Shown here piece after piece: positions 19,255-24,054 of a stretch of DNA of 64,000 nucleotides. The notes beneath the pieces are model-generated. The model did no database searches and was not told where the DNA came from. It was given only the letters and a program-made list of their open reading frames with translations. The stretch is from assembly GCF_003991155.1 (NCBI RefSeq), contig NZ_CP031293.1, one strand, 5' to 3'. Positions within the stretch are counted from its first letter, which is position 1; the number at the start of each line of letters is the position of its first letter. The translations under genes were made by a program, and so were the position numbers. This DNA comes from Escherichia coli (GTDB lineage Bacteria; Pseudomonadota; Gammaproteobacteria; Enterobacterales; Enterobacteriaceae).

Positions 19255-20103
19255 ATGGCGACATACCTTATTGGCGACGTTCATGGTTGTTACGATGAAC
19301 TGATCGCATTGCTGCATAAAGTAGAATTTACCCCTGGGAAAGATACCCTCTGGCTGACGGGCGATCTGGTCGCGCGCGGCCCGGGTTCGCTGGATGTTCT
19401 GCGCTATGTGAAATCCTTAGGCGACAGCGTACGTCTGGTGCTGGGCAATCACGATCTGCATCTGCTGGCGGTATTTGCCGGGATCAGCCGCAATAAACCG
19501 AAAGATCGCCTGACACCGCTGCTGGAAGCGCCGGATGCCGACGAGCTGCTTAACTGGCTGCGTCGCCAGCCTTTGCTGCAAATCGACGAAGAGAAAAAGC
19601 TGGTGATGGCCCACGCCGGGATCACGCCGCAGTGGGATCTGCAGACCGCCAAAGAGTGCGCGCGCGATGTAGAAGCGGTGCTGTCGAGTGACTCCTATCC
19701 CTTCTTCCTTGATGCCATGTACGGCGATATGCCAAATAACTGGTCACCGGAATTGCGGGGGCTGGGAAGACTGCGTTTTATCACCAACGCCTTTACCCGT
19801 ATGCGTTTTTGCTTCCCGAACGGTCAACTGGATATGTACAGCAAAGAATCGCCGGAAGAGGCCCCTGCCCCACTGAAACCGTGGTTTGCGATTCCTGGCC
19901 CCGTCGCTGAAGAGTACAGCATCGCCTTTGGTCACTGGGCATCGCTGGAGGGCAAAGGTACGCCGGAAGGTATTTACGCGCTGGATACCGGCTGCTGTTG
20001 GGGCGGGACATTAACCTGCCTGCGCTGGGAAGATAAACAGTATTTTGTCCAGCCGTCGAATCGGCATAAAGATATGGGTGAGGGAGAGGCGGCCGCGTCT
20101 TAA
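19255..20103 (+). CDS. apaH: Bis(5'-nucleosyl)-tetraphosphatase (symmetrical)
   Basis: 282-aa ORF beginning [16 protein letters not shown]; metallophosphatase GDxHG motif. Confidence 0.95.
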
Positions 20104-20127
20104 CGCTTTACCATTCAGGGAGGAATA

Positions 20128-20727
20128 ATGGCTGACTATTTTGAAATACGTGCTGATTACAATCAGCACACCATCACGGTTTATCAGGCTTACAATGATG
20201 CAATCGCTGACGTCGCCGTACGTGACGGGCGATTTGGCGCACCTTTTTCATTCAACCGCATGACCTGGATTAAACCCTCTTTTATGTGGATGATGGAGCG
20301 TAGCAACTGGGGACTGAAAAAAGATCAACAACGCATTCTCGCAATCCGAATCAAACGCACCTTCTTTGATACATTGCTGGAACAAGCGGTGCTAACCACG
20401 CCGGAAGCCCATGTCTATCCACATGCAGGAGTTTGGGAAACGTTATTTGCGCAAGCAAATGTATATGTTCAGTGGGACCCAGAACGCAGCATAAATGGCA
20501 AAAAACTGGAGCACCGATCATTACAGCTTGGTATTTCTCGTAACTTGATCAGTCAATTTAACGAAGACGCCATTGTTGCCATTGATGATCTGACGCCGCT
20601 GGTGCGAAAGTGTCATAACCTTTTGATAAACGGTAAAACAACACAGGCGAAATCCTTCCTGCCGCCAGAAAAAATTTATCCTGTTAGTGCAACTGCAAGA
20701 AAGGCTTGGGGAATGAAAAATTCCTGA
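20128..20727 (+). CDS. Hypothetical protein (199 aa), accessory, function unknown
   Basis: ORF with good SD (GGGAGG) 24 bp after apaH; about 45% GC, lower than neighbours; not part of the K-12 apaH–folA junction as I recall it. Confidence 0.6.
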   Translation: MADYFEIRADYNQHTITVYQAYNDAIADVAVRDGRFGAPFSFNRMTWIKPSFMWMMERSNWGLKKDQQRILAIRIKRTFFDTLLEQAVLTTPEAHVYPHAGVWETLFAQANVYVQWDPERSINGKKLEHRSLQLGISRNLISQFNEDAIVAIDDLTPLVRKCHNLLINGKTTQAKSFLPPEKIYPVSATARKAWGMKNS

Positions 20728-20762
20728 GACAAATACGCGCCTATTAAGCGGAAAATATCTAA

Positions 20763-21212
20763 GTGCGACAAATCAACGCCGGGCTTAATACCAGAGAAAT
20801 TATTCTGGAAATGATTGACGAAGCAGATGACCCCCCGTTTGCTGAGCAGCGAACCTGGCATCGCAGGCGAATCGCTTTTCTTTGTGAGTGCATCAGCGTT
20901 GCTGTCGACTACGGCTTCTTCTGTTCTGTCTCTCAGCAGTCAATAATGAACATAACCAGGATGGCTGAAGATGTATGGATAACAGAAAGTAAAACGACCC
21001 AACTCATTGATATCTGGCAGCAACTTAAGCAGCTTTATCCGCCAGAAACTATTCCCTATACCCAGCAGTTACCCGCTAAAGAATTGCTTGAACTGCTACT
21101 TTCCAGTCCTGACGATCTTCGAATAATTGAAATCCCTGACATCATCGGCGATGTTTTTGATGACCAAACCTGGATTCGATTATTCAAAAAACACTTTGCT
21201 GATGTTATCTAA
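20763..21212 (+). CDS. Hypothetical protein (about 133-149 aa), accessory, function unknown
   Basis: ORF-track frame opens at a GTG at 20763; the first in-frame ATG is at 20811 (MIDEADDPPF...); acidic; start codon uncertain. Confidence 0.5.
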   Translation: MRQINAGLNTREIILEMIDEADDPPFAEQRTWHRRRIAFLCECISVAVDYGFFCSVSQQSIMNITRMAEDVWITESKTTQLIDIWQQLKQLYPPETIPYTQQLPAKELLELLLSSPDDLRIIEIPDIIGDVFDDQTWIRLFKKHFADVI

Positions 21213-21528
21213 CTACGATGTGATGTGTAACAATCTAAAATACATCGCCAGACGACAGACCAAAAAGAAAGTATTTAGCAGATACTCAACATTCTGACTT
21301 CTGTACAGAAATAGCAGAGTTTAAAAACTTAAAATTTCCGGTACTCATCAGAGAAACATCCTGTTTCTTCTGCAAGTTCATTTAATGCCGAGATGGCATC
21401 CTCGTTTACTTCAGTCCACTGTAGAGTGGCTTGAGGGTTTAGACCTACGCAATGAGTGCGACTCACAAAATCGCGCTCACTGGTAAAATCAGACGTCTTA
21501 TCGTTCAATTTGTAGTCATAGCAAAAAC

Positions 21529-24054
<2,526 letters not shown>

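Follow-up and report, generated by a model that had tools for sequence, protein, structure and literature searches.

The segment between apaH and folA

We analyzed a 64,000-nucleotide stretch of Escherichia coli DNA (contig NZ_CP031293.1 of RefSeq assembly GCF_003991155.1), which we call the window, at the junction between the core genes apaH and folA. From the apaH stop codon (20103) to the folA stop codon (21529) there are 1,425 bp of non-core sequence, 20104-21528, holding three open reading frames (ORFs): ORF1 and ORF2, which follow apaH in the same direction, and ccdA', which lies on the opposite strand next to folA (Table 1). RefSeq labels the three, in this order, 'DUF4291 domain-containing protein', 'hypothetical protein', and 'type II toxin-antitoxin system CcdA family antitoxin'. 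Of the core genes of the window here, pdxA, rsmA, apaG, and apaH are encoded on the plus strand, folA and kefC on the minus strand.

An earlier reading of the DNA letters alone (the original prediction) had described a two-gene insert of lower GC content at this position. Indeed, two co-directional ORFs with the predicted ends lie right after apaH, ORF1 is preceded by a strong Shine-Dalgarno sequence, and ORF2 is acidic; the description was incomplete in that it lacked the third element, ccdA', on the minus strand. The lower GC content is also borne out, with values of 0.45 in ORF1 and 0.44 in ORF2 compared to 0.54-0.57 in apaH, rsmA, and folA and 0.52 in the window. At third codon positions (GC3) the difference is similar, 0.44-0.45 in ORF1 and ORF2 versus 0.57-0.64 in the flanking genes.

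A terminator scan revealed no terminator-like site separating apaH from ORF1; judging from the sequence, ORF1 is most likely co-transcribed with apaH and expressed by read-through from the apaH operon. The numbers of predicted promoters and terminators across the segment do not depart from those expected in shuffled sequence, and neither the gap between apaH and ORF1 nor the region after folA holds a convincing one. A repeat search turned up no direct or inverted repeats at the flanks that would mark an insertion, and an Rfam search of the segment returned nothing near gathering scores. In the spacer at 21213-21328 no ccdB remnant (tblastn with CcdB), RNA family (Rfam), or terminator (signal scan) was detected. 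Scans of the three proteins against NCBIfam and PHROGs gave nothing significant, and no PADLOC-DB 2.0 family matched any of them at E <= 1. By these comparisons the segment matches no known anti-phage system.

Table 1 Features of the apaH-folA segment and its boundary genes (positions in the window).
Feature	Position	Strand	Description	Source
apaH	19255..20103	+	left-boundary core gene, last of the pdxA-rsmA-apaG-apaH run preceding ORF1	ORF list; RefSeq annotation of strain 2016C-3878 (100% identical)
spacer, 24 bp	20104..20127	+	GGAGGA Shine-Dalgarno sequence at 20119-20124	sequence
ORF1	20128..20727	+	199 aa, ATG start, isoelectric point (pI) 9.3, full-length DUF4291	
spacer, 35 bp	20728..20762	.	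module boundary; in-frame TAA at 20760-62 directly 5' of the ORF2 start	sequence; blastn of L026 (Escherichia sp. MOD1-EC7003) against the window
ORF2	20763..21212	+	149 aa from GTG, pI 4.55; 133 aa if started from the internal ATG at 20811	
spacer, 116 bp	21213..21328	.	AT-rich, non-coding; GC 0.37-0.41 in windows spanning it	
ccdA'	21329..21508	-	59-codon ORF, TTG start; RefSeq call is 45 aa from GTG at 21466	
folA	21529..22008	-	right-boundary core gene; stop codon 20 bp from the ccdA' ORF	

ORF1 is a DUF4291 protein whose model resembles an RNA-targeting toxin

ORF1 is a full-length member of the Pfam family DUF4291 (PF14124; E 2.2e-68), with residues 6-184 aligned to model positions 1-180 of 180. 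Since the domain spans nearly all of the 199 residues, there is no toxin-delivery or trafficking domain. The family has 7,795 matches at E < 1e-10, most of them standalone proteins of 196-201 aa, and a mean column identity of 58% in our alignment. Identity to ORF1 falls from 93-99% in other Escherichia species to 81% in Superficieibacter and 67% in Listeria costaricensis, and is 55-60% in Bacteroidota, 49-53% in Streptomyces plasmid records, and 42-48% at actinomycete genome loci. The ratio of nonsynonymous to synonymous changes (dN/dS) is 0.08-0.12 for ORF1 (p = 3e-9 against the neutral expectation), showing strong purifying selection, stronger than that on ORF2.

A 2025 survey predicted that DUF4291 proteins are atypical ADP-ribosyltransferases (ARTs) with the motifs QA[YF], WIK, and [AS]IQ, and that they bind NAD+, the latter by docking (PMC12522546). 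In ORF1 the motifs read Q20-A21-Y22, W47-I48-K49, and S131-L132-Q133, the third being S-L-Q and not the published [AS]-I-Q. Q20, A21, W47, K49, and Q133 are invariant in 47 DUF4291 sequences.

The AlphaFold model of ORF1 (predicted local distance difference test score 94.9) has the ART fold, and the closest solved structure is the C-terminal domain of RhsP2 (PDB 7RT7), a T6SS toxin of Pseudomonas aeruginosa. In a Foldseek search RhsP2 was the only significant match (E 1e-4, probability 1.0, template modeling score 0.69-0.71); in the fold search the matches that followed it were exotoxin A (5.7), TreTu (5.4), and ParT/RES (5.3). Compared to the published prediction, then, RhsP2 and not exotoxin A or RES is clearly the closest solved structure of ORF1. 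The likeness does not extend to the sequences, which are ~10% identical; sequence searches of PDB chains with ORF1, ORF2, and the DUF4291 profile returned no match even at E = 10. The surface of the ORF1 model is basic.

RhsP2 ADP-ribosylates the 2'-OH of structured RNA via an R-Y-E triad, and its E1576Q variant is inactive (PMC12340436). By published motif assignment and conservation, the DUF4291 positions matching this triad are Q20, W47/K49, and Q133, placing an invariant Gln where the catalytic Glu of motif III is expected. Because of this Q / W-x-K / Q pattern, canonical ART catalysis by ORF1 is doubtful. E119, within the sequence QWDPE on a neighboring strand, is also invariant in DUF4291 and may be a catalytic residue. 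Glu-less ART-fold enzymes exist, Tpt1 among them. DUF4291 resembles Tpt1/KptA in combining an ART fold with the apparent absence of the canonical catalytic Glu, and by analogy it may likewise act on RNA using NAD+. ORF1 differs from RhsP2 in further respects: it is not fused to Rhs or any other delivery module, it has no RhsI2-like partner, and, as described below, DUF4291 is tolerated alone in a natural genome.

DUF4291 genes sit beside ADP-ribose erasers in some bacteria

The survey reported that DUF4291 neighborhoods are enriched in TetR, NUDIX, Macro, ARH, and Tpt1, with KptA present in 10% (PMC12522546). At a locus of Chryseobacterium lactis (L010, 226-10594), we find the order NrtR-NADAR-2OG-...-DUF4291-PARG-DUF2971-SIR2-ARH-...-KptA, and on a Prevotella-type contig (L047/L048, 1742-9541) the order WYL-NrtR-...-NADAR-NADAR-ARH-DUF4291-x-ARH-KptA-ARH. 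These NrtR-headed clusters, in which KptA co-occurs with DUF4291, look like multi-enzyme batteries for the reversal of ADP-ribosylation. PARG is the class of hydrolase that reverses RhsP2 marks, and bacterial PARGs act as enzymatic immunity against RhsP2 (PMC11833690). Elsewhere, the Listeria DUF4291 gene lies directly 3' of a histidine phosphatase gene, and in Streptomyces adustus a SIR2 gene is close to DUF4291. When the eraser genes of the C. lactis cluster were sought near other DUF4291 copies, only SIR2 recurred, and only once. Within its family the E. coli copy is an ordinary member, differing from copies in some other phyla in that it is without NAD/ADP-ribose neighbors.

Several other features of these contexts were noted. 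Both NrtR-headed clusters also contain several unannotated ORFs, and the DUF2971 gene is itself ART-like. In Enterobacter sp. Bisph1 (L042, 1060-7512) an Rhs locus contains a DUF4291 gene (46% identity) in opposite orientation, flanked by an Rhs protein with a small ORF downstream of it and by an orphan Rhs C-terminal fragment with a small TPR-containing ORF. In Runella defluvii (L043, 2976-4037) DUF4291 forms the C-terminal half of a 353-aa protein whose N-terminal region is helical and weakly HEAT-like; the gene stands in a series of nine small ORFs, all in one direction, that includes DUF3885.

ORF2 belongs to a small, putatively immunity-type family

ORF2 has no match in Pfam, NCBIfam, or PADLOC. 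The original prediction could assign neither protein to a family; ORF1 does belong to a named one, DUF4291. The ORF2 family is small, with 6 representatives among 1.84 billion proteins and 23 proteins recovered by a profile search of 5.8 billion. Full-length members are 189-249 aa long and share an N-terminal CxxC...CxxC segment, a core with an invariant W-H-x-R-R (WHRRRI in enterobacterial members) and an invariant Phe three positions on, and the C-terminal motif W..L..KHF.

The Escherichia proteins (149 or 155 aa) begin at about residue 36-42 of the full-length proteins, directly after an in-frame TAA, and have therefore lost the zinc-ribbon-like N-terminal part. The window allele is shortened at its other end as well: a TAA (21207-21212) replaces the CAA/CAG of the majority allele and the last 6 codons are lost, giving 149 aa compared to 155 aa (...ADVIQLRCDV). 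Despite the truncation, ORF2 is under purifying selection, with a dN/dS of 0.16-0.24 (p ~1e-5 against neutrality).

By homology to a modeled relative (P0008), ORF2 is predicted to be all-helical. The immunity protein SsdAI is one of the two structures whose folds best match the ORF2-family model. We considered ORF2 as the cognate immunity protein of an RhsP2-like toxin and rejected this candidate; the 60 best fold matches do not include RhsI2.

The distant relatives of ORF2 with visible context lie in low-GC (0.33-0.36), co-directional arrays (L011-L018 and L044; in L019 the Imm45-containing run is shorter); a Dysgonomonas locus (L045/L046) is the exception. These arrays contain Imm5, Imm11, Imm12, Imm17, Imm43, Imm44, Imm45, Imm-NTF2, SUKH/SMI1_KNR4, PoNi, and DMP19, and the full-length ORF2-family members in them are from Bacteroidota. 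In four loci (L015, L017, L018, and L044) a tyrosine recombinase lies directly upstream. A recombinase-associated array architecture is characteristic of the rAID-1 orphan-immunity clusters of Bacteroidales (Ross et al., 10.1101/471110), and the low GC content, co-directional layout, and Imm families, as well as the upstream recombinase in those four loci, are common to rAID-1 arrays and the distant full-length relatives of ORF2. The likeness is one of architecture, rAID-1 itself being defined by a XerD-like recombinase at least 44% identical to BF9343_RS08045. In contrast, ORF2 of E. coli stands by itself, truncated, at a junction of core genes, with no recombinase and no array, in an Enterobacteriaceae host. 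No cognate toxin of the ORF2 family was identified in any context examined. ORF2 points to an unnamed immunity-type family common to Bacteroidota immunity arrays and Enterobacteriaceae.

ccdA' is treated as a relic of a ccd cassette

The ccdA' product matches only positions 39-71, the C-terminal half, of the 71-position Pfam CcdA model (E 3e-8). Aligned to residues 13-77 of the ccdO157-type CcdA, it is 48% identical with a 14-residue gap, and its last 29 residues are well conserved. Compared to that protein it is without the N-terminal 12 residues and 14 internal residues; it has no N-terminal DNA-binding part and keeps the CcdB-binding-type segment at its C-terminus. Searches at 20000-21700 with the ccdO157-type and F-plasmid CcdB proteins (tblastn) found nothing better than E = 1. 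No Shine-Dalgarno sequence or promoter is recognizable for ccdA', which starts 20 bp from the folA stop codon and has no promoter space. Its dN/dS of 0.27-0.52, based on very few changes, is indistinguishable from neutral.

The ccdO157 system (Mine et al. 2009) occupies the same chromosomal site, and its CcdA resembles ccdA' over those last 29 residues; ccdA' differs from it by the internal deletion and by the loss of the DNA-binding part, ccdB, and the promoter region. From these sequence features we treat ccdA' as a relic of a ccd cassette without ccdB and, because it is only 48% identical, as one of a different ccd lineage than ccdO157. It is probably inert, and the label 'CcdA family antitoxin' at this locus should be read as denoting a relic.

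The segment is one allele of a hypervariable junction

Queried alone, the segment has a match in 543 of 5,426 complete E. coli genomes (~10%), 536 of them full length. In 63 genomes the match is at least 99% identical to the window, while 477 carry an allele at ~96.5%, a group that takes in O26:H11, O103, and O111 strains. Another 2,026 genomes (37% of the 5,426) have ccdA-ccdB at the junction instead, and the remaining ~53% have neither cassette. In K-12 and HS the gap is 77 bp (PMC7232551), so the expectation that K-12 would show less than 100 bp here, and that the segment would not be universal, proved correct. The folA-apaH junction is documented to be plastic and to undergo decay (Mine et al. 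2009, as described in PMC3184786 and PMC7232551), and IS1-mediated deletions are seen there. The segment is one allele of this known hypervariable junction.

Matches in E. coli 'plasmid' records were considered as evidence of mobility and set aside: two are records of 0.4-1.3 Mb that are probably chromosomal, and one is an insertion sequence (IS)-mobilized folA fragment. On the 69-kb IncY plasmid pPK5074-69kb (L021, NZ_CP072804.1, 3248-6363), an ORF2 fragment, ccdA', and folA lie between IS1 and IS26, adjoining blaTEM-1. In the chromosome of strain EF7-18-58 (L020, NZ_CP068591.1, 1759-3233) this FolA allele (WP_130560492.1) recurs and the same IS1 again abuts ccdA'-folA; the genes upstream are aldB and yiaW, not apaH. 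The capture may amount to a mobilization of chromosomal folA, which could matter for trimethoprim through gene dosage.

ORF1 and ORF2 are separable and their arrangement is probably old

Natural genomes carry each of the two genes without the other. Escherichia sp. MOD1-EC7003 (L026) has an intact DUF4291 gene, 94% identical to ORF1, followed by a 127-bp hairpin-containing spacer and then folA, with no ORF2; its blastn alignment to the window stops ~6 bp past the end of ORF1, inside the 35-bp spacer. On an enterobacterial contig (L003), a full-length ORF2 homolog stands alone between apaH and folA. Searches with a hidden Markov model of the ORF2 family found no ORF2-like neighbor at 16 more distant DUF4291 loci. 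Because DUF4291 is alone in the one genome and the ORF2 homolog alone in the other, the two genes are separable both ways and form no obligate pair, and DUF4291 is tolerated without ORF2. Every combination of the parts occurs in nature, and so do the module boundaries.

The DUF4291-folA spacer of MOD1-EC7003 (L026, 1295-1430) contains a long perfect hairpin, GGGCTGTCTCTTGATCAG ... CTGATCAAGAGACAGCCC, exactly where E. coli has the ORF2-ccdA' block. This hairpin could be an element like a repetitive extragenic palindrome or a miniature inverted-repeat transposable element (REP/MITE-like), or a terminator.

In Superficieibacter, a DUF4291 gene and then an ORF2-family gene lie directly after apaH, and here the ORF2 homolog is full length (218 aa). 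The apaH and DUF4291 genes form a collinear block, 77.6% identical over 1,488 bp. Between Escherichia and Superficieibacter the proportion of synonymous differences (pS) is 0.78 in DUF4291, which is saturated, compared to 0.56-0.69 in the core neighbors; saturation of synonymous sites rules out a recent transfer between the two genera. E. whittamii has the same three-ORF layout, and ORF1 and ORF2 are open there and in three alleles up to ~6% diverged. Among species-representative genomes, close relatives occur only in Escherichia and Superficieibacter. From the collinearity, the saturated synonymous sites, the layout in E. whittamii, and the restriction to two genera, we infer that the arrangement is old, has been repeatedly lost or replaced, and was not inserted recently in this strain. 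The horizontal acquisition suggested by the original prediction agrees with the accessory nature and lower GC content of the segment, but such an acquisition would have been an old one.

Two further observations concern this history. The GC3 of DUF4291 and ORF2 is low (0.42-0.49) in both Escherichia (window 20128-21212) and Superficieibacter (L008, 5001-6457) despite their saturated divergence; after such long residence, amelioration to the host GC3 of ~0.6 is expected. In Superficieibacter electus (L007/L008, 6558-7178, minus strand), a 206-aa PRiA4_ORF3-family gene lies beside folA, in the position that the ccdA relic has in E. coli, and is another variable passenger at the apaH-folA junction.

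Interpretation

We favor reading the segment as a mosaic made up of three independent modules of conflict type, and not as one operon-like system: a non-toxic DUF4291 protein, an orphan immunity-type ORF2, and the ccdA' relic; we give this reading about an even chance of being right. ORF1 would be an intact, selectively maintained, non-secreted DUF4291 protein that may bind NAD+ or ADP-ribose and be a non-toxic enzyme of the processing or repair type, with RNA as its substrate (the 2' position or phosphate ends). Its nearest analogy would be Tpt1/KptA, the other ART-fold enzyme of the NrtR-headed ADP-ribose eraser clusters, and it would not be a toxin needing ORF2. ORF2 would be an orphan immunity-type protein, an acidic helical bundle that may bind an incoming interbacterial toxin and that selection has kept after the loss of its zinc-ribbon-like segment. 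The ccdA' gene would be what is left of a ccd toxin-antitoxin cassette after the loss of ccdB. The toxin/immunity module proposed in the original prediction survives in the conflict-type character of the parts (an RhsP2-like ART fold, a family of orphan-immunity arrays, a CcdA relic), but not as an obligate pair, and not with a delivery domain or a Glu at the position of Q133.

Several points weigh against the mosaic. Two genera with saturated synonymous sites share the order of DUF4291 followed by ORF2, and ORF1 (pI 9.3) and ORF2 (pI 4.55) have complementary charge; both would also be expected of a functional pair. The scan gave no promoter or terminator signals above chance for expression in E. 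coli. The link to NAD/ADP-ribose genes is patchy, as most Streptomyces DUF4291 loci have none within 3.5 kb. We know of no DUF4291 protein with an established biochemical activity. The active-site equivalences are putative, coming from the published motif assignment and from conservation. Finally, the published prediction for DUF4291 favors protein substrates (PMC12522546).

Alternatively, the whole segment might be an antidote islet, in which DUF4291 protects against ADP-ribosylating or RNA-damaging toxins and was joined by two orphans, an immunity gene and a fragment of an antitoxin, as defensive orphans gathered at the hotspot. We regard this as possible but unlikely. It fits the position of DUF4291 inside batteries made up mostly of erasers (two NADAR, three ARH, and a PARG) with KptA under NrtR, its presence in the Rhs toxin/orphan locus of Bisph1 and in the Runella run of small co-directional genes, the company it keeps at the junction (an immunity-type gene, the PRiA4_ORF3 gene, the ccdA' relic), and the demonstration that bacterial PARGs serve as enzymatic immunity against RhsP2. 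Against it, ccdA' has no detectable selection, Shine-Dalgarno sequence, or promoter space and is probably inert, and Tpt1 is the only ART fold with known eraser chemistry. The islet also overlaps with the mosaic that we favor, from which it differs mainly in proposing a common selective logic for the three parts.

A genuine toxin-immunity (or toxin-antitoxin-like) pair, in which ORF1 is an intracellular RNA-acting ART toxin and the acidic ORF2 binds it and, like RhsI2 with RhsP2, blocks the basic face of its active site, seems to us improbable, slightly more so than the islet. The ART fold of ORF1 is closest to a bactericidal toxin; the ORF2 family occurs in immunity arrays and has SsdAI among its two best fold matches; the order, toxin then immunity, is kept in Escherichia and Superficieibacter; the pI values are complementary; ORF2 was retained by selection after its truncation; and an ORF2 homolog alone in L003 would fit the loss of a toxin with the immunity gene kept. 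This reading is weakened, however, by natural counter-examples, namely the intact DUF4291 gene alone beside folA in MOD1-EC7003 and the DUF4291 genes of Listeria (67%) and of Chryseobacterium and Prevotella (57-59%), which have no ORF2-like neighbor. In addition, DUF4291 has thousands of members compared to 23 in the ORF2 family, its conservation across phyla is untypical of toxins, its invariant Gln is at the position expected for the catalytic Glu, whose change to Gln inactivates RhsP2, and RhsI2 does not appear among the 60 structures with the folds most similar to the ORF2-family model.

That the segment is simply decaying junk from old hotspot insertions, on its way to the 77-bp K-12 state, is very improbable: the truncation of ORF2 and the nonsense change that shortens it further in the window, the fragmentary ccdA', the IS1-mediated deletions, and the decay documented at this junction (Mine et al. 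2009, in the account given by PMC3184786 and PMC7232551) all fit, but ORF1 is full length against the Pfam model, ORF1 and ORF2 are open in E. whittamii and in three alleles up to ~6% diverged, and the selection tests disfavor decay of both, with non-synonymous changes far below neutral expectation (p = 3e-9 for ORF1, ~1e-5 for ORF2).

On present evidence the locus should not be called a toxin/immunity or defense cassette. The hotspot at the junction and the ART-like prediction for DUF4291 were already published; what we add is that the closest solved relative of DUF4291 is the RNA-targeting toxin RhsP2 and that DUF4291 can stand alone in a genome without an antidote. Thousands of bacterial species, and many fungi and invertebrates, carry members of DUF4291, a large and strongly conserved family whose activity has so far only been predicted. 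We add as well that in E. coli the gene lies directly behind apaH in ~10% of strains, making genetic and biochemical tests easy.

More speculatively, and with a likelihood we consider low, DUF4291 could be a hitherto unrecognized RNA-directed ART-fold repair or eraser enzyme, in which an RhsP2-like RNA-binding fold with a Glu-less site removes or converts 2'-linked ADP-ribose or phosphate adducts, or reversibly caps phosphate ends. It would work with NADAR, ARH, PARG, and KptA in NrtR-controlled batteries as enzymatic immunity against nucleic-acid-targeting toxins, and ORF2 would represent a new immunity family built of a zinc ribbon plus a helical bundle. If this is true, the E. coli copy in O26, O103, and O111 Shiga toxin-producing strains would be a tractable model for the family.

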